The notes: a model not told the origin generated them from the sequence alone. Shown: positions 2,200 to 17,174, counted from the stretch's first letter. The stretch: 21,657 nt of DNA from Promethearchaeota archaeon Loki_b32 (GCA_005223125.1 NJBH01000048.1:1-21657), one strand, 5' to 3'. Program-made: numbers and translations.

Positions 2200-2430
2200 T
2201 TAAAAATATAATCGACACCGAATACTCACAAAATCTTTTCTACTTATAGAGTACACATCTTTTGATTGCTCATATCTAAAATTTTTTACATTTAAGGGCA
2301 TACATTCCACAACTCTAAAAAACACTCTATTATCTTTTATCCATAAATGATCTACCATAATGCTGATTTTATCGGTTATTCCTGTGCTGTAAATTTGAAA
2401 TCCTGAAAGTGTTTGTAGTTTAGATTCCAT
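2200..2430 (-). CDS. Small hypothetical protein (beta-rich)
   Basis: 76-aa ATG-start ORF with normal composition and a TATA-like TTTAAATT about 25 nt upstream. No family recognised. Confidence 0.6.
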   Translation of the reverse strand: MESKLQTLSGFQIYSTGITDKISIMVDHLWIKDNRVFFRVVECMPLNVKNFRYEQSKDVYSISRKDFVSIRCRLYF

Positions 2431-2715
2431 ATCTTTTATTAATATATACTAATTTAAACCACAGTATTTAAAAAAAAAATAATTTGAGATGGAAAATTAT
2501 GGTACTTTTGTCTTTTTTAATTTTTGTCTCCCTCCTCCAAATAGCTTAAGTGCCATAAAAATCAATTCTTTCTCGATTTTGAGTTAAATGCTTTATCAAA
2601 TGGAATAAGATCGTCTGTTTTATACGATGGTCATTATTGAATCTCGAAGTGCTTATTTAAATATCACTAATTTTAGAATTTATCAAAAATGAGTCAAAAG
2701 AAAAATGTTTAATAT

Positions 2716-2735
2716 TAGTGTGAAATTTCACACTA
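2716..2735. promoter_or_regulatory. Perfect 20-bp palindrome TAGTGTGAAATTTCACACTA, putative transcription-factor operator
   Basis: Exact self-reverse-complement. It lies immediately downstream of TATA-like TTTAATAT (2708-2715), which has a purine-rich BRE-like run upstream, and 36 nt before the start at 2772. Confidence 0.7.
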
Positions 2736-2771
2736 TCACACAATCAAAAAAATTGAACATGGTTAAATTAA

Positions 2772-3716
2772 ATGAAAATTGAAAAATCGAGCCAAGATCT
2801 CGAAAATGAAGTGATCTATGCTGGTTTATGCATCCATTGTGGGAGTTGTAATGCTTTTTGTCCGCACATGGATTTTAACACAGAAAATGGAGAAGCCTAT
2901 GTCGTAGATGAATGTGCTGAAACCGTAGGTCTCTGTTATAATTCTTGTCCTAGAAGTTTTCTCCCTATATCAGAAATAGAACAAAAATTGTTTGGAAAAA
3001 CCCGTATTGATTTAGCTGTTGGAGTTTATAACGATATTATTCAAGTAAAATCAAAAAATAAAGATGACATTTTATACAATCTTGTTGTTGCTGCTTTTGA
3101 TGCTGGAATAGTAAAACACATGGTTTTAGGTGAACCAAAAAGTAAAAAACCCCCTGTTGCTTTCCCTGTTGTCGTTGATAATGCTAAAGACGCTAAACAA
3201 TACATACCAAAAGCTACAATGGATAATGCTGGACCTTTGATTACAGGAATTGGTCAAGCTTATAAAGCTTATAAGCGAGATATTGGAATCCTTGCTAATC
3301 CTTGTCATATACAAGGCCTTGCAAAGATTCTAGTCTCTGATTTTAATACTGGAGCAGAACATACTTCATTAAGAATAGCGTATGCTTGTTCTTCCGGAGG
3401 CATGACAGGCTGCAAATATTGTACTGATTTCTCTGGTGAATTTTCAGATATTTCCTACTCTCCATGGGGTGCTCCAAAAGGCTCTGGAGAAGCGTTATTA
3501 ATTATTCGAACCGAGACTGGTCAAAAGCTTGTTGATACTGCTGTTAAAAATAAATTGATCGAAATTACAGATTCAAATCCAAACTTATCAGAAATGAAGA
3601 GATTTCTAAATAAAAAACGTAAGAAAAATTTTCTAACCCTTCTTGGTAAAGATTTAATAGAAGCTAAGTATTTAAATCTTAACGTTGATGAGTTAAAAGA
3701 TATTCTTGAAGAGTAA
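2772..3716 (+). CDS. Coenzyme F420 hydrogenase/dehydrogenase beta-subunit (FrhB/FdhB)-like Fe-S protein with N-terminal ferredoxin domain, atypical
   Basis: CIHCGSCNAFCP and C...GLCYNSCPR ferredoxin motifs. FrhB-type motifs NPCH, GCKYCTDF..EFSDIS and LLIIRTETG. Confidence 0.85.
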   Translation: MKIEKSSQDLENEVIYAGLCIHCGSCNAFCPHMDFNTENGEAYVVDECAETVGLCYNSCPRSFLPISEIEQKLFGKTRIDLAVGVYNDIIQVKSKNKDDILYNLVVAAFDAGIVKHMVLGEPKSKKPPVAFPVVVDNAKDAKQYIPKATMDNAGPLITGIGQAYKAYKRDIGILANPCHIQGLAKILVSDFNTGAEHTSLRIAYACSSGGMTGCKYCTDFSGEFSDISYSPWGAPKGSGEALLIIRTETGQKLVDTAVKNKLIEITDSNPNLSEMKRFLNKKRKKNFLTLLGKDLIEAKYLNLNVDELKDILEE

Positions 3717-4390: not shown

Positions 4391-5266
4391 TTATTCACTA
4401 TTCAATTGTTTTTTAATTTTATTACTCAATGCTTTAAGGTTTTCAATTATTTTTATCTGTAAGTTTCTTGGTAGTGACTCAATAATCTTATCTAACTTTT
4501 CTTTACTAAAATTATTAACAGCTTTATAATTGAAAGTCAGTAGAATTATCGATAAAACTGGTGGAATGATAAGGATTCCAAAGAAAAAATATGAGAGAAT
4601 TATTGGTTGATAACTTGGAAGAAAATATTGCATACCCAGACTTGGAAAATTAATTAAAAGTACATTAAATATCAAATTGACAATGTTCAATATTATGAAT
4701 ATAAAGAATGTAATGAGAGAGCTTACCTTTAAATTTTTATATTTTAAGAAAGAGATGATATTTTTTAAATCTCTTGAGAATTGAGAATCAATCTTTTCCT
4801 CAAGTGGATCAGTTATAATTTCTATTTTTGTATACTTCCATAAATCAATAAAAATCCAAAAAAAAGCAAAAGTGTAAAAAAAAACAAAAAATCCTGTAAA
4901 ATATATCATGTAACTATCGATTAAATGAGGATTGTATAATGATTCAGCACCTAACCAGAAAATTAAGATTAATTGAAATAGTGAAGAGAAAAAAAATCGA
5001 TTTGCATTTATACGTTCTAAACCTAAAGGATTATAAATAACAAGACTATTTTCAAATTCAGTTTTATTCTTATTTGTATTAAGAATACGAAAAAATAGTG
5101 AAAATGTGAAAGTTATTAGGGGAAATAGCAATAAGAAGATATTATCCCATGCTTGGCTGATTATTATTAGAAAGAGGAACATGAATAAAATTATATCTCG
5201 TAGAAGACTCTCAGAGATTAAGTTTCTTAATGTCAAATGATGATTCTTATTATTTTTTTCGTTCAT
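4391..5266 (-). CDS. Hypothetical polytopic membrane protein (about 6 TM)
   Basis: 291-aa ORF with about six long hydrophobic stretches and a charged helical C-terminus. No family recognised. Confidence 0.75.
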   Translation of the reverse strand: MNEKNNKNHHLTLRNLISESLLRDIILFMFLFLIIISQAWDNIFLLLFPLITFTFSLFFRILNTNKNKTEFENSLVIYNPLGLERINANRFFFSSLFQLILIFWLGAESLYNPHLIDSYMIYFTGFFVFFYTFAFFWIFIDLWKYTKIEIITDPLEEKIDSQFSRDLKNIISFLKYKNLKVSSLITFFIFIILNIVNLIFNVLLINFPSLGMQYFLPSYQPIILSYFFFGILIIPPVLSIILLTFNYKAVNNFSKEKLDKIIESLPRNLQIKIIENLKALSNKIKKQLNSE

Positions 5267-10851: not shown

Positions 10852-12819
10852 ATAGATTATTTATCTTTTTTTCCTTACGAGCAATTCAGAGAAAATCAAG
10901 AAAAAATTACTAATCAGATTGAAGTAAGTTCAAGATCAAAAAAGATAACCCTATTATCAGCTCCTAATGGAGCAGGAAAGACTATAATTGCTTTATGTGG
11001 GCTTTTACCTTTAGCATATGAGAAAGATCTAAAAATTATTTATATGTGCAGAACACATTCTCAAAATCGTAGAATAATCAAAGAGTTAATTAAAATCTCA
11101 CAAAAAACCCTTGATGACAAACTTGGAATTAAACTTAACGGTCTTTCAATAAGAGGGAGAAATGAAATGTGCCTAAATAAAACTTTATTATCTCTTAAAT
11201 TAAATCCAAGGGACGCAATGTCTGTTTGTGGAGATTTAAGAAAGAATAGAAGTTGTTTATATTTTTTAAAATTATTAAAAAAGAAGGGACAAAATGAAAA
11301 TCCAATATCAATCGCACCAGAATTATTTAATAAACCTGTTGATGCAGAAGAACTAATAAATTTCTGTAAGGAAAAAAAATTTTGTCCATATTTCTTAAGT
11401 AAATTCTTACTTGAACATATGAAAGTAATTATCTGCAATTACCAGTGGATTTTCAATCCATTCATTCGAGATTCTTTTTTAGAATTTATTGGTCAAGAGC
11501 TTCAAAACTGTATATTAGTATTGGATGAGTGTCATAATATAATTGATGTCGCAACAGATGTAAATTCAAAAAAAATCACACCATATTTATTAAGACTTTG
11601 CTTAAAAGACTTAGAAATGTATAGATCCCATATCTTAATGCAGAGTTTTGTTAAAATATTATTAGACCTATTAAACGAGAATAAAAATAATCTAAGAATT
11701 GAAGAAAAAGCGGTAGTGCCAGATAAAATTTTAAAAATTATTCATAAAAGACTTGGCTTTCATGACTTAAATGGATTTAAGAACTTTATTGAAGAACTTC
11801 ACGATTTCAGTGTGTCGATTCATGAGGAGAAACTCGCTAATGGAGAAATTTCAAGAGACTATGTTGGATCTTTAGCAGAATTTTGGTTGAAATGGCTGAA
11901 GACATACACTTTAGATAACTATTTCTTTTGCTACAATCTGAAAGTAATTAAAGGAAAACGATCAATATCACTTGAAATAGTTGCATTAGATCCAAGAGAA
12001 ATTTCTATTCCTATCTTAAAAAAAAGTTATACATGTTTAAATCTCTCTGGTACTGTAAACCCTTATGTATTCAATAATTTAATGGGATTAAATGAATGTG
12101 GAAAGAGTTATAAAGGTATTATAGCAGATTCACCATTTAATCATAATAATATCAAGGCTGTTATCACTGAAGGAGTAAATACTAAAAGGGTTAATAGAAC
12201 ATCCAATATGTTCAAAAAAATGATTGGGAAAATTAGTGAAGTTTTACAATGTACTCCCGCAAATGTAGGAATTTTTTGCGCATCATATCAAATTCTTAAT
12301 GCTCTCGTTGAGAATGATATAGAATCTGTAGTATTAAATAATCATAAAAAAATGTTTGTTGAAGAACCTGGGCTATCCGCCTCTGAAAATGCTGCCTTAG
12401 TAGATGATTTCAAAAGTATGGCTTCAAATGGTGGAGCTGTTTTATTGGGCGTATGTGGAGGAAGAAATTCAGAAGGAGAAGATTACCCCGGCGGTTTCAT
12501 GAATTCTGTTATAATTGCTGGATTTCCGTATCATCTCCCAACTCCTAGAGTTGAAGCGAAAATCGCTTATTATAATAAAGTGTTTAAAAGACAAGGTTGG
12601 AATTTTGCTTACCTTTATCCAGCAGTACAAAGGGCTAACCAAGCTTCTGGAAGGCCTATAAGAAAACTCTCTGATAAAGGAGCAATAATTTTTATGGATG
12701 ACCGTTTTAAAGCAAAATATAAATGGATATCAGATTGGATAAGAAAAGAGTTAAAATTAATACCTGATATCCCTAATGCAATAATTAAAAATCTCTACCC
12801 TTTTTGGTTTAAGAAGTAA
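10852..12819 (+). CDS. XPD/Rad3-family Fe-S DNA helicase (SF2); true start upstream of the ORF-track call at 11044
   Basis: The same frame upstream of 11044 encodes FPYEQFRENQ (Q motif) and SAPNGAGKT (Walker A). Downstream are RTHSQ, four Fe-S Cys including CPYF, DECH, SGT, GRNSEGED, QASGRPIR and DDRF. The start is placed tentatively at ATA 10852. Confidence 0.9.
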   Translation: MDYLSFFPYEQFRENQEKITNQIEVSSRSKKITLLSAPNGAGKTIIALCGLLPLAYEKDLKIIYMCRTHSQNRRIIKELIKISQKTLDDKLGIKLNGLSIRGRNEMCLNKTLLSLKLNPRDAMSVCGDLRKNRSCLYFLKLLKKKGQNENPISIAPELFNKPVDAEELINFCKEKKFCPYFLSKFLLEHMKVIICNYQWIFNPFIRDSFLEFIGQELQNCILVLDECHNIIDVATDVNSKKITPYLLRLCLKDLEMYRSHILMQSFVKILLDLLNENKNNLRIEEKAVVPDKILKIIHKRLGFHDLNGFKNFIEELHDFSVSIHEEKLANGEISRDYVGSLAEFWLKWLKTYTLDNYFFCYNLKVIKGKRSISLEIVALDPREISIPILKKSYTCLNLSGTVNPYVFNNLMGLNECGKSYKGIIADSPFNHNNIKAVITEGVNTKRVNRTSNMFKKMIGKISEVLQCTPANVGIFCASYQILNALVENDIESVVLNNHKKMFVEEPGLSASENAALVDDFKSMASNGGAVLLGVCGGRNSEGEDYPGGFMNSVIIAGFPYHLPTPRVEAKIAYYNKVFKRQGWNFAYLYPAVQRANQASGRPIRKLSDKGAIIFMDDRFKAKYKWISDWIRKELKLIPDIPNAIIKNLYPFWFKK

Positions 12820-12823
12820 CTTT

Positions 12824-13996
12824 TTAATTTGGTTTAAATTTCCAAAAAATTATAAAAGTAGAAATTGCTGGAAATATAATCATAAAATACATGACAATAT
12901 AATAATCTGAATTAAAAACTGATAATAACAAACTGAATAATAACCCTCCCATAAAGCTTCCTGAAAAGACACTAGTGTTAGCAAAGCCCATATATTGTCC
13001 CTTATTTTTAGGGGTAGTTTTCTGAGCGATATATATGGTAGTAGCTGACCAATGCATAGAATAGCTAAAAGAAACTAAAAATTGGAAAAATAAATAACTC
13101 CAGAAATTAGTTGAAATAATGTATCCGAAAATAGTAATTGAGCTTAATATATAACCAATTATCATGAAAGATTTAATATTTTTAACGCTGATTACCCTTC
13201 CTATTACTAACATCTGAAAAAATTGTAATAAAAAGTTGATACCAATCAGAAATCCAATCTTGGTATCATTTCCTAAATGAAGACTCATGATTATTGCAAG
13301 GATTGGCATAATTGGTTTGATACTAAAATTTCTAAAAAATAAGCCATAATAGATCGACTGAGATATTGAAGTTCCTTCTTCAATATTATTTAAAAAAATA
13401 TGATTAGGTTTTTTGTCTACATCTTTATTATACCTTTCTAAGATTAAAGACCTCTTTTCCTTTATGAAAACAACGAAAAAAATGTTTGGCAAAGAAATTA
13501 GAAATATAAATAGAAAAATTTTCTCGATTCCATAAATATCAATAAAAATACCACCAGATTGGGCTCCTGCAAACCACCCCGCTACAACTATAGCGTTAAA
13601 GTAAGAAATTAGTGTTTTATCATCTTCTACTAATTCTGCAAATAAAGTCATTAATAGGTTAGATGATGCCATAAAAAAACCAAAAAAAAATAACAATATG
13701 ATTATTAATATCAAATTCTGAGTTAGACTTAAAAAAAAATAAGCGAAGGTAATACCAAGCGTTCCAAATAAAATGAATATAATCCTATTTTGCATCTTAT
13801 CTGAAAAAAAACCATATAAGGGGGGGAAAATAAAAGCGGTTAATGGAAAAATTGTAATTATAAGCTGCATTACTGGTCTTTCTATACCTAAAAATAATAA
13901 GTATTTAGGTATATAAGTGTAAACTATAATTCCAGCAGTATTAATTATAAAAATAGAAAATAAAATTAGAATGATTGATTTTTTTGATAAGATCAA
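12824..13996 (-). CDS. MFS transporter (paralog 2)
   Basis: 390 aa, about 12 TM in two bundles of six, motif-A-like GFFSDKMQNR. TTG start with AAGGGG upstream. Confidence 0.9.
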   Translation of the reverse strand: MILSKKSIILILFSIFIINTAGIIVYTYIPKYLLFLGIERPVMQLIITIFPLTAFIFPPLYGFFSDKMQNRIIFILFGTLGITFAYFFLSLTQNLILIIILLFFFGFFMASSNLLMTLFAELVEDDKTLISYFNAIVVAGWFAGAQSGGIFIDIYGIEKIFLFIFLISLPNIFFVVFIKEKRSLILERYNKDVDKKPNHIFLNNIEEGTSISQSIYYGLFFRNFSIKPIMPILAIIMSLHLGNDTKIGFLIGINFLLQFFQMLVIGRVISVKNIKSFMIIGYILSSITIFGYIISTNFWSYLFFQFLVSFSYSMHWSATTIYIAQKTTPKNKGQYMGFANTSVFSGSFMGGLLFSLLLSVFNSDYYIVMYFMIIFPAISTFIIFWKFKPN

Positions 13997-14112
13997 GTTT
14001 TATTCCCCTTTTAGAAATATATTAAACTATCTAACAATAATTACTTTTTTAAATAATTTATGAATTAAAAGCCTTTTTTGTAGAGGTAAAGTAAATTTTC
14101 CTTGAAATAAAA

Positions 14113-15285
14113 TCAATTATTTTTAAATTTTATTGCTATAATTAAAGTAGAAACAATCGGAAAAATAATCATAAATGACATAGAAATATAATAATTAGAA
14201 TGGAAAACTGTTAATAATAGGCTGAAAAATAGACCTCCTATTGTTGTACCCACGAAAACACTAGTGGTTGCGTATCCCATCAAGCGCCCTTTATTAATTG
14301 ATGTTGAGTTTTGAGCAATATATACAATCGTGGCCATCCAAAACATTGAATAACTTAAAGAGACTATAACTTGGAAAATTAGAAAACCCCAAAAATCAAC
14401 AGATATAATATACCCTAAAATAACTATAACAGATAAACAGTATCCTAAAATCATAAAAGCCTTAATATTTTTCTTGTTTAATATCCTTCCTAAAAATATC
14501 ATTATAAAAAATTGAAATAAAGGATTTATCCCTACTAACAACGCAATTTCAGTATGGCTAGATATGTAGAACCCCATAATAATTACAAGAATATTCAAAA
14601 TTGGTATAATACCAAAATTCCTAAAAAGAAGGCTATAATAAATTGATTTAGAGATATTGTTATCTTCTTCGAGATTATTATCAATCACTTTTTTTTCAAT
14701 ATATTCTGGTACTTTTTTATTATAATCTAATATTAATTGTCTATTTTCTCTAATGAACACAATAAAAATTATACTCAACATGAAAGTAATTAGTATAAAG
14801 AGGAATAAGTTTTCAACCCTAAAGATATCTATCATCATACCACCTATTAGAACACCAATGAAACTTCCAATTGAACAAATTGAGTTATAATAAGATATCC
14901 ATTTTTGGTCATTTTGTACTAATTCACTATAAAGAGTAAGAATAATAGTCAAAGATGAAGTAAAAAAGCCAAAAATAAATACTAGTATATTTAATATTAT
15001 AAAATTGCTTGTAAAAAGAAGGAAAACTAAAGTAATAAGAATTCCGACAGATCCAATAAAAATAAAATAAATTCTATTCTGGAGTTTATCTGAATACCTA
15101 CCTAATAAAGGTGGAAAAATAAAAAATGTAGACATTGCAAAAGTTATCGTTAATGTTACTATTGGTATGGGCACCCCTAAAAAATATAAATATGACGGTA
15201 AATAAGTATACAACATCATAATAGAGAGATAAATGAAGAAGACAGTTCCTAAAATGAAAGCTACAGATTTTTTTGATATTATCAA
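14113..15285 (-). CDS. MFS transporter (paralog 1)
   Basis: 390 aa, about 12 TM, GRYSDKLQNR, collinear with the neighbouring MFS. TTG start with GGAG upstream. Confidence 0.9.
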   Translation of the reverse strand: MIISKKSVAFILGTVFFIYLSIMMLYTYLPSYLYFLGVPIPIVTLTITFAMSTFFIFPPLLGRYSDKLQNRIYFIFIGSVGILITLVFLLFTSNFIILNILVFIFGFFTSSLTIILTLYSELVQNDQKWISYYNSICSIGSFIGVLIGGMMIDIFRVENLFLFILITFMLSIIFIVFIRENRQLILDYNKKVPEYIEKKVIDNNLEEDNNISKSIYYSLLFRNFGIIPILNILVIIMGFYISSHTEIALLVGINPLFQFFIMIFLGRILNKKNIKAFMILGYCLSVIVILGYIISVDFWGFLIFQVIVSLSYSMFWMATIVYIAQNSTSINKGRLMGYATTSVFVGTTIGGLFFSLLLTVFHSNYYISMSFMIIFPIVSTLIIAIKFKNN

Positions 15286-15362
15286 TTGCTCTTCTCCATA
15301 CTATAATATAGTGTTAAGACTGAAATTAAAATAAGAATAACAGATCTTTTAGAAATCATCAA
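15282..15362 (-). other. 26-aa mini-ORF homologous to the MFS N-terminus (truncated third paralog or coupled leader peptide)
   Basis: TTG-ATG start 8 nt after GGAG (15371-15374). Translates MMISKRSVILILISVLTLYYSMEKSN. Its TGA (15284-15282) overlaps the MFS TTG start (15285-15283). Confidence 0.7.
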
Positions 15363-15374
15363 TTAATTAACTCC

Positions 15375-17174
15375 TTACATATTCAGTGACCGAAGATTTT
15401 TTATCATTTTATATAAGTCGATTAATTTCTTAGAGACGATACTCCATCTAAAATTATTTTCTACTCTTTTATAACAGTTTTCTTTGATCTTATTGTAATA
15501 ACTCGGATCTAGTAATACTAAAGATTCAAGAATTTTATCAGGAATCTGATTAACTAACTGAAAATTTTCAGTTTCATATATTGCTTCCTTATCTTTTACC
15601 TTTTGACAAATTTCCTTTAATTTAAAAAGAGATATTAACGCCTCAGCAAATTGAGAGGGATTATTTTTATCAATCAAAATACCTGTACCTATTTCAGGAA
15701 AACTTCTAATATCTATTATAGATTCTTGAAAACCTCCAACTTTCGTTGCAATTACAGGTAATTTTGTCGACATTGCTTCTAAAGCGATAATGCCAAACGG
15801 TTCCCATCTCGACAATGCACAATAAACATCAGAAGAAATATGTGCGAGATGGAAAATATCCATAGCTACACCATAAATAATCCTTAAATTATTTGGATAT
15901 TTTTTAACAAAATGAGCATAATTTCGAATTTCATTTAAACTATAATCAGTAGGCAATATTAGGAATAAGAATTTGGCATTGGGGATTACTTCTATTACTT
16001 TAGGGATCCCATCAAAAATTGTTTCAAATCCTTTTTGTGGTGATATTCTTCCAGTAGTAATTACTAATGGACCTGATTCGTTGAAGGCTCTAATATATCC
16101 TCCTCTAATGAATTCATTACCATTTGAAATCTCATTAATTATATTCAATACTTTTTCTGAACGAATTAAGGGACTTTTATCTAAATTAGATAACTTATGA
16201 GTCAACAAATATTTCTTCATATCAGATATGGTTAAATTTTTATCTAAGGGTATTTGTAACACGTCCCTCATTTCATTTTCATGATTTTTTAACACTTGGT
16301 GGAAAATCTCATCATATTCCCAATCACATCCATCCCAGACAAAATTAGATTTGAATTCAATTAATTCATTACCACAATTTGGTATTATATCAGATTTTAA
16401 ATATGATTGACTTACAGTGGTCACCAAATCACTAACAAATGCACCTACCATTTCTATTGTAGGGTTTTGATATCCTTCGGTTATTTTTTTACAAGTAGTG
16501 AAAATTTCATTAAGAGTTAGTGCTTTAAGTCCCTCTTTTACATGGATAGTTATGGGTGTATGATCTATTCCACATGTTCTATAAAAATCAATAGGATATC
16601 TTGGCCATGTTAATAAATGGATAGTAATTAAAGAAGCTACATCTAACCCATTTTTAGCTAATATTTGTTTTATTCCTATGAATGGTATAACCGCATGATA
16701 ATCATGTATATGAATTATCTTTGGTAAGTCTTCTTTACGATTATCAATTAAAAAATCAACGTAACAACACATTCCTATACTAAAAAGGCTTATCTTTCCA
16801 CTAAGGGTATCTGGATTATAAACAATCTTATCATCAAGAAAATTATTAGTAAAAGGATTTTCCCCATGTAATACAATAATATTTACATTGTTGATTTTTA
16901 ATTTGTAAAAAGAAATATTATAGGTAGTTTCCGGTTCAAACATTCCAAACTGTGAAGAACTTATTTGTCCTACACAATTAAATGGTAGTTTTTCCAATTC
17001 GTGAGTTTTTTCAAGAATATGCAATTGACCATGTGAAGGAATAAAGACCGTGATTTCATAATCATTAGCTAGATGTTTTGCTTGATTTGCGGGTACTTCT
17101 CCAAGACCTCCTACTTTCACAATTCCCGCATATTCAAAAGTAAAAATCCAAATATTATCTTTGGCTTCTATCAA
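15375..17174 (-). CDS. glgA: Glycogen/starch synthase (GT-B glycosyltransferase)
   Basis: Motifs FEYAGIVKVGGLGEV (KxGGL), HIHDYH, TTVS, GRISPQKG and SRWEPFGIIALEAM. Confidence 0.88.
   Translation of the reverse strand: MIEAKDNIWIFTFEYAGIVKVGGLGEVPANQAKHLANDYEITVFIPSHGQLHILEKTHELEKLPFNCVGQISSSQFGMFEPETTYNISFYKLKINNVNIIVLHGENPFTNNFLDDKIVYNPDTLSGKISLFSIGMCCYVDFLIDNRKEDLPKIIHIHDYHAVIPFIGIKQILAKNGLDVASLITIHLLTWPRYPIDFYRTCGIDHTPITIHVKEGLKALTLNEIFTTCKKITEGYQNPTIEMVGAFVSDLVTTVSQSYLKSDIIPNCGNELIEFKSNFVWDGCDWEYDEIFHQVLKNHENEMRDVLQIPLDKNLTISDMKKYLLTHKLSNLDKSPLIRSEKVLNIINEISNGNEFIRGGYIRAFNESGPLVITTGRISPQKGFETIFDGIPKVIEVIPNAKFLFLILPTDYSLNEIRNYAHFVKKYPNNLRIIYGVAMDIFHLAHISSDVYCALSRWEPFGIIALEAMSTKLPVIATKVGGFQESIIDIRSFPEIGTGILIDKNNPSQFAEALISLFKLKEICQKVKDKEAIYETENFQLVNQIPDKILESLVLLDPSYYNKIKENCYKRVENNFRWSIVSKKLIDLYKMIKNLRSLNM

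Follow-up and report, generated by a model that had tools for sequence, protein, structure and literature searches.

What is the short open reading frame that lies between a glgA-like gene and a pair of transporter genes of the major facilitator superfamily (MFS) in the genome of Promethearchaeota archaeon Loki_b32? Its 26 codons read like a copy of the neighbouring transporters' own N-terminus. The first-pass annotation of the window (the whole 21,657-nt stretch that was analysed, NJBH01000048.1:1-21657 of GCA_005223125.1) allowed two origins for it: the scar of a third tandem MFS copy removed by deletion, or a retained leader peptide that mimics the first transmembrane segment (TM1) and couples the transporter to glycogen synthase. 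On the evidence set out below, the 89-nt interval that holds this ORF is very probably the neutral scar of a deleted third MFS gene, MFS-C, and not a selected small protein.

All features of the locus lie on the minus strand. The operon's first gene (15375-17174) encodes a 599-aa glgA-like glycogen/starch synthase of family GT5, whose translation matches Glyco_transf_5 (PF08323, 7e-21) and Glycos_transf_1 (PF00534, 1e-20) in Pfam and whose TAA stop occupies 15377-15375; orthologs with 66-97% identity stand upstream of the MFS array in all relatives examined. Behind it lie MFS-A (14113-15285) and MFS-B (12824-13996), which encode 390 aa each, are 53% identical to one another, and belong to clades A and B in a tree of the tandem MFS paralogs. 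Both proteins match Pfam MFS_1, at 91.7 and 112.2 bits against a gathering cut-off of 33.4. The position of the MFS-A start is confirmed by the related locus L052, which has ATG at the same site, and places that start 89 nt from the glgA stop.

The first-pass annotation was correct on every visible feature of the ORF in these 89 nt. The tetramer GGAG (15374-15371) abuts the glgA TAA and is followed 8 nt further on by TTG (15362-15360) and then ATG (15359-15357). From the first of these starts the ORF spans 26 codons (15282-15362; 25 codons from ATG) and translates as (L/M)MISKRSVILILISVLTLYYSMEKSN*. It closes with TGA at 15284-15282, which runs into the start codon of MFS-A, TTG at 15285-15283; stop and start together make up a 4-nt overlap, TTGA, at 15285-15282. 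The GGAG of MFS-A (15297-15294) lies inside the ORF. The 26-aa peptide has no match in Pfam, a Rfam scan of the interval matched no family, and folding the interval as RNA revealed no unusual structure (z = 0.44).

Aligned without gaps, the stub matches the 5' end of MFS-A at 34 of 54 nt and that of MFS-B at 37 of 54, and for both queries it is the best or second-best non-self match (second or third of all positions), in register with the start codons. Background scores at 43,206 positions (the window, both strands) average 16-17.5 with a standard deviation of about 3.5, and the best unrelated match reaches 32-33; the similarity to the MFS starts exceeds what AT-rich sequence yields by chance, by a margin that is not wide when judged on the window alone. 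The gap-free alignment to both MFS starts that had been reported for the whole peptide is thus real but shorter than claimed: only codons 1-17 are MFS-derived, and the last nine (LYYSMEKSN) are spacer DNA read through in the frame of the stub.

The gene from which those 17 codons derive belongs to neither of the two transporter clades present in this genome. An MFS protein tree of the locus and its relatives resolves three clades, A, B and C, with SH-aLRT support of 99-100 (100 for clade C). When the sequences that follow the glgA stop are compared across all loci, the first 62 nt past the stop in our genome (15313-15374) prove to be the MFS-C ribosome site GGAG, its 8-nt spacer, the TTG/ATG starts and 17 codons of MFS-C. 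The corresponding sequence of G001, a congener with an intact MFS-C, is a nearly base-for-base match to the stub, as are the 5' ends of other intact MFS-C genes, and in G001 as in our genome GGAG abuts the glgA stop. The start and 17 codons (..SKRSVILILISVLT) carry the clade-C motif ISVL(T/I), unlike the GTVFF of clade A or the FSIFII of clade B. Across the 66 nt that cover the ribosome site and 18 codons, the stub agrees with MFS-C of G001 and G016 at 51 positions and with that of G023 and G014 at 50, against 41 for its own MFS-A and 42 for its own MFS-B; mean scores over the same span are 47.3 to C, 43.2 to B and 41.7 to A, and the top four matches are all C. The margin of C over A and B is modest because all paralog 5' ends are alike, and some B genes in first position after glgA reach 47-49 of 66 against the stub. 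The remaining 27 nt of the interval (15312-15286) are the last 27 nt of a native MFS-C/MFS-A spacer: they align to the MFS-A-facing end of the C-A spacers in five relatives (G024, G043, L052, G009 and G020), where these spacers measure 96-137 nt, and also with the last 26 nt of a 137-nt interval in two loci, L050 and L056, described below.

That likeness among paralogs, which share the GGAG-N8-TTG layout as well, would also be expected if the stub had arisen by tandem duplication of a short stretch at the start of MFS-A or MFS-B in the same genome. We regard such a local partial duplication as extremely unlikely. The stub is nearer to the clade-C genes of other genomes than to its own A and B genes, it carries the C-type motif, and it stands at the exact position of MFS-C, abutting the glgA stop. 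In L050 and L056, moreover, more of the genuine C-A spacer survives behind the same stub.

What a loss of MFS-C looks like can be judged from loci sampled by an MFS-A search of 54 genomes of the genus, together with a single scan of metagenome contigs and another of genome contigs. In 10 congeneric genomes an MFS gene of clade C, complete in length, begins 12-24 nt past the glgA stop, and the stub in the genome of the window, G000, begins at 12 or 15 nt (TTG or ATG). The order after glgA is C-A-B in G024, G043 and G009, C-A in G020, and C-B in G023, G001, G008 and G021; in G016 and G014 MFS-C is followed by the end of the contig. Three further genomes (G012, G007 and G017) have B only. Within G000, an assembly estimated to be 95.5% complete, only MFS-A and MFS-B were matched in a search for a clade-C gene elsewhere (E<=0.001). 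The comparison of the glgA-MFS interval among relatives thus bears out the proposal of a lost third tandem copy: an intact third MFS is present at this position, and a short ORF with the stop/start overlap is not conserved.

We infer an ancestor with a C-A-B array behind glgA, made up of three MFS paralogs in tandem. A deletion of ~1.2 kb would have taken MFS-C from codon 18 to a point 27 nt before the MFS-A start. The MFS-C ribosome site and start codon(s) would have stayed, together with 17 codons now fused in frame to nine spacer codons, and these spacer codons would run by chance into the TGA that overlaps the TTG of MFS-A. The C-derived segment ends ...GTC TTA AC, and TTAAC is found at both inferred breakpoints, in codons 16-17 of MFS-C on one side and in the spacers of L052 and G043 on the other. 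Because of this shared pentamer, a microhomology-mediated deletion would fit the junction.

A junction of this kind could in principle be manufactured by an assembler. Tandem paralogs with near-identical 5' ends collapse easily in metagenomes, and G000 is a MAG of 71 contigs, in which a collapsed repeat could conceal an MFS-C that the organism still carries. We give this explanation next to no weight. An assembler that merged the repeated 5' ends would leave a clean join in frame, whereas here a piece of MFS-C runs into the middle of a non-repeated spacer, and no clade-C fragment occurs on other G000 contigs. Apart from a single substitution, AGT to GGT (Ser to Gly), the same 89-nt junction recurs in L049 (Ga0209977_10000451), an independent metagenome contig that is 97-98% identical to G000 across glgA and MFS-A and diverges completely past MFS-A. 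An analogous but different stub appears in two further, unrelated data sets, L050 and L056.

In L050 and L056 (= G050) the glgA-A interval is 137 nt long and consists of the C ribosome site, 19 codons and 69 nt of genuine spacer. The stub reads MLSK(R/K)SV(A/V)LILISVLIYEN* and stops 67 nt before MFS-A. Among the 54 genomes of the genus, a stub occurs in G000 and G050 only. The glgA tree places G001, with its intact MFS-C, as sister to L050/L056, and G000/L049 as a separate branch within the same six-member clade, which also includes G024 with its C-A-B array. The MFS-A tree agrees with the glgA tree in not grouping the stub bearers. Monophyly of the four stub bearers (G000, L049, L050 and L056), a group that was named after the tree had been seen, is rejected by an AU test on glgA (p-AU 3e-5).

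Two readings of this pattern are available. MFS-C may have been lost in two separate deletions, one of which left 17 codons and the other 19, or a single deletion allele may have spread by recombination and been shortened by another 48 nt in G000/L049. Recombination at the interval is plausible because L050 shares with G000 a 22-nt tract that is missing in L056, and TTAA repeats are the proposed ends of the second, 48-nt deletion that would turn the 137-nt form into the 89-nt form. The 5' breakpoints of the two stub lineages fall within 6 nt of one another (17 and 19 MFS-C codons), which counts against a neutral scar. This near-coincidence is the sole hint of anything beyond neutral decay, and it would be explained equally well by a hot spot for breakage where the conserved 5' segment ends.

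A neutral scar may nevertheless be read by ribosomes. Use of a ribosome site at these genes is suggested by the paralog starts, because GGAG or GGGG stands at -12 to -9 in 28 of 46 of them and a Shine-Dalgarno-like 4-mer in 35 of 46; the MAG contains no 16S rRNA, and so no anti-Shine-Dalgarno sequence with which to compare these sites. Since the stub keeps an intact GGAG-N8-TTG/ATG, it is probably translated into a short hydrophobic peptide of 25 or 26 residues. Judging from the layout, ribosomes that finish the stub at TTGA could go on to initiate again at the MFS-A start. Translation is tightly coupled across -4 overlaps in both archaea and bacteria, as shown in Haloferax volcanii and E. coli, while at gaps of ~20 nt the coupling is lost (Huber et al. 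2019, PMC6728339; Huber et al. 2023, PMC10666635).

These features give some substance to the idea of a co-opted leader micro-ORF, a stub kept by selection that feeds ribosomes to MFS-A at TTGA, encodes a peptide acting on the transporter, or both. The ribosome site and start are intact, the 4-nt overlap is in place and the GGAG of MFS-A lies inside the ORF. Most of the 96-137-nt spacer before MFS-A has been deleted, perhaps along with upstream signals that belonged to MFS-A, and stubs of similar length occur in two lineages that glgA does not group. We nonetheless consider a leader kept by selection improbable. MFS-A is not coupled to MFS-C in intact arrays, where it lies behind a spacer of ~96-137 nt, and for this reason any coupling in G000 would be a new by-product of the deletion, in our reading an accident with no selected function. 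Only G000 and L049 have the 26-codon ORF and its stop/start overlap, and at 97-98% nucleotide identity the two are too close to show conservation. The ORF, its tail and the overlap are not conserved, because other lineages have either the 19-codon stub, whose stop 67 nt from MFS-A is past coupling range, or, as in G005, G044 and G041, no stub at all. The proposed coupling of the transporter to the gene before it thus holds as a physical -4 layout but is confined to the G000/L049 lineage.

Substitution counts give no clear sign of selection either. G000 and L049 differ at one of the 89 nt, and the local dS of 0.024 (450-nt flanks) would predict 2.1 differences (P = 0.37); with the locus-wide dS of 0.069 the same count gives P = 0.015, but divergence is visibly lower near the junction. 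Between L050 and L056 the interval evolves faster than the flanking genes, at 91.9% identity (90% in the stub ORF) compared with 98.4% in MFS-A, 98.0% in MFS-B, 96.0% in glgA and 94.1% in the A-B spacer. The L050/L056 stubs differ by four synonymous and two non-synonymous changes (dN 0.047, dS 0.39), and the resulting dN/dS of 0.12 looks purifying at face value, from six changes of which three of the synonymous ones are linked and resemble one conversion tract. No clear constraint on the stub emerges from these counts. A retained leader peptide that mimics TM1, the second of the origins first suggested, also finds no clear support in the peptide itself: its uncharged stretch spans 16 residues, borderline for a membrane span, against 23 in TM1 of intact MFS-C.

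AcrZ, KdpF and MgtS are small single-pass membrane proteins that modulate transporters; they are conserved and have full-length TM helices. The stub peptide is likewise short, hydrophobic and encoded beside a transporter gene. Unlike them, it comprises roughly the first half of TM1, with its 16 uncharged residues, followed by fortuitous spacer residues, and it is not conserved. With the overlapping gene pairs whose translation is coupled (Huber et al. 2019, PMC6728339; Huber et al. 2023, PMC10666635) the locus shares the -4 overlap and a downstream Shine-Dalgarno sequence inside the upstream ORF. Classic coupled pairs overlap by ATGA, however, and the overlap here is TTGA; known pairs are conserved, and their products are usually subunits of a single complex, whereas here a 26-codon relic, probably translated, overlaps the next gene in one shallow lineage. 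The closer parallel is with the 5' pseudogene stubs that deletions leave in arrays of tandem paralogs, which this stub resembles in its positional orthology, in the 17 codons and upstream signals it has kept, in its missing remainder, in showing no clear constraint, and in remnants that differ in size between lineages. It departs from the usual stub of this type in that it stays open and ends in a 4-nt overlap, and so looks like a designed leader ORF. In short, the stub is an ordinary gene relic that mimics a coupled leader ORF and lacks the conservation that marks a coupled ORF or a small membrane regulator. A literature search combining Asgard, glycogen synthase and major facilitator found no paper.

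Were the relic co-opted after all, translation of MFS-A in G000 and L049 would depend on the relic MFS-C start and on reinitiation at TTGA, and selection would be keeping the 17- and 19-codon stubs in two lineages. We think it unlikely that this is so; if it were true, an Asgard archaeon would offer a gene remnant caught in the act of turning into a leader ORF for coupling. As a neutral scar the interval has little significance alone, being a clean and well-documented relic, but it does carry a caution for annotation: an open, overlapping mini-ORF with a ribosome site and a resemblance to its neighbour's N-terminus can arise purely from deletion in a tandem array.

The array itself turns over quickly. 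One to three MFS genes follow glgA, with several internal stops among them, and deletions have ended in different ways. In G005, G044 (= L054) and G041 (= L057) glgA and MFS-A meet at a clean 12-nt junction. This junction may stem from a C::A recombinant, though the K/R and V/I states at codons 5-9 are not diagnostic (MFS-A of L052 also has KR). A candidate for a fourth outcome in G006, a 3' stub of MFS-C without glgA, was dropped, the fragment abutting a run of N in its scaffold. Taken together, the arrangements show rapid birth-and-death turnover of the glgA-linked MFS array in this genus of Promethearchaeota, with differing deletion outcomes, a turnover that bears on the sugar-transport capacity inferred from MAGs of these archaea.

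In several lineages, the array of tandem MFS transporter genes downstream of glgA appears to be in decay. An internal stop codon lies inside MFS-A in three of 12 genus genomes: TAA in G020 (C4:10066-11226), TGA in G009 (C178:3601-4758) and TAG in G041 (C59:7958-9121). On contig L052, MFS-B is matched in two frames (2380-3310).

MFS-A was also compared between the window (14113-15285) and the metagenome contig L049 (3001-4164), which has the same stub of MFS-C behind glgA and is 97-98% identical across glgA and MFS-A. Over the first 600 nt of the gene we found 13 differences, nearly all of them amino-acid changing (dN 0.027, dS 0.004), and over the last 564 nt dN was 0.051 and dS 0.168. This uneven dN/dS pattern along the gene suggests relaxed constraint, a recombination boundary within MFS-A, or both. 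Homology between the two contigs ends sharply at the MFS-A stop (L049:4189-7164 versus window 12824-14112). MFS-B is absent from L049 within 3 kb past MFS-A, and the third gene of the operon has therefore been lost or replaced in this close relative. In the window, MFS-B is convergent with a plus-strand ORF of 591 aa (11044..12819), which ends 4 nt from the minus-strand stop of MFS-B (12819-12824), leaving hardly any space for terminators.

The MFS-C stub itself differs between two other loci that carry it, L050 (1232-1367) and L056 (2865-3000), whose MFS-A and MFS-B genes are ~98% identical. Within the stub they differ by a linked tract, ATT TCA GTC in L050 and ATC TCG GTT in L056. The L050 version is shared with the window and the L056 version with intact MFS-C genes, such as that of G001, which suggests that a short stretch was exchanged by gene conversion or recombination. 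In G006 (L035:~4560-4630, on C1), what looks like a C-terminal piece of MFS-C, with no glgA upstream, was rejected as a deletion scar and not counted: it adjoins a run of N in the single-scaffold assembly and marks a gap there.

At locus L064 (1334-1499; G057, C34), part of the glgA 3' end is present as an extra copy of 173 nt, 78% identical to the glgA tail of the window, directly 5' of an A-like MFS gene. This arrangement suggests that the array was built by tandem duplication of a unit made up of glgA tail, ribosome site and MFS gene. The copy terminates in TAAGGAGTTAATTAT, followed by the TTG of the A-like gene; the real glgA is found farther upstream, as is a B-like MFS gene.
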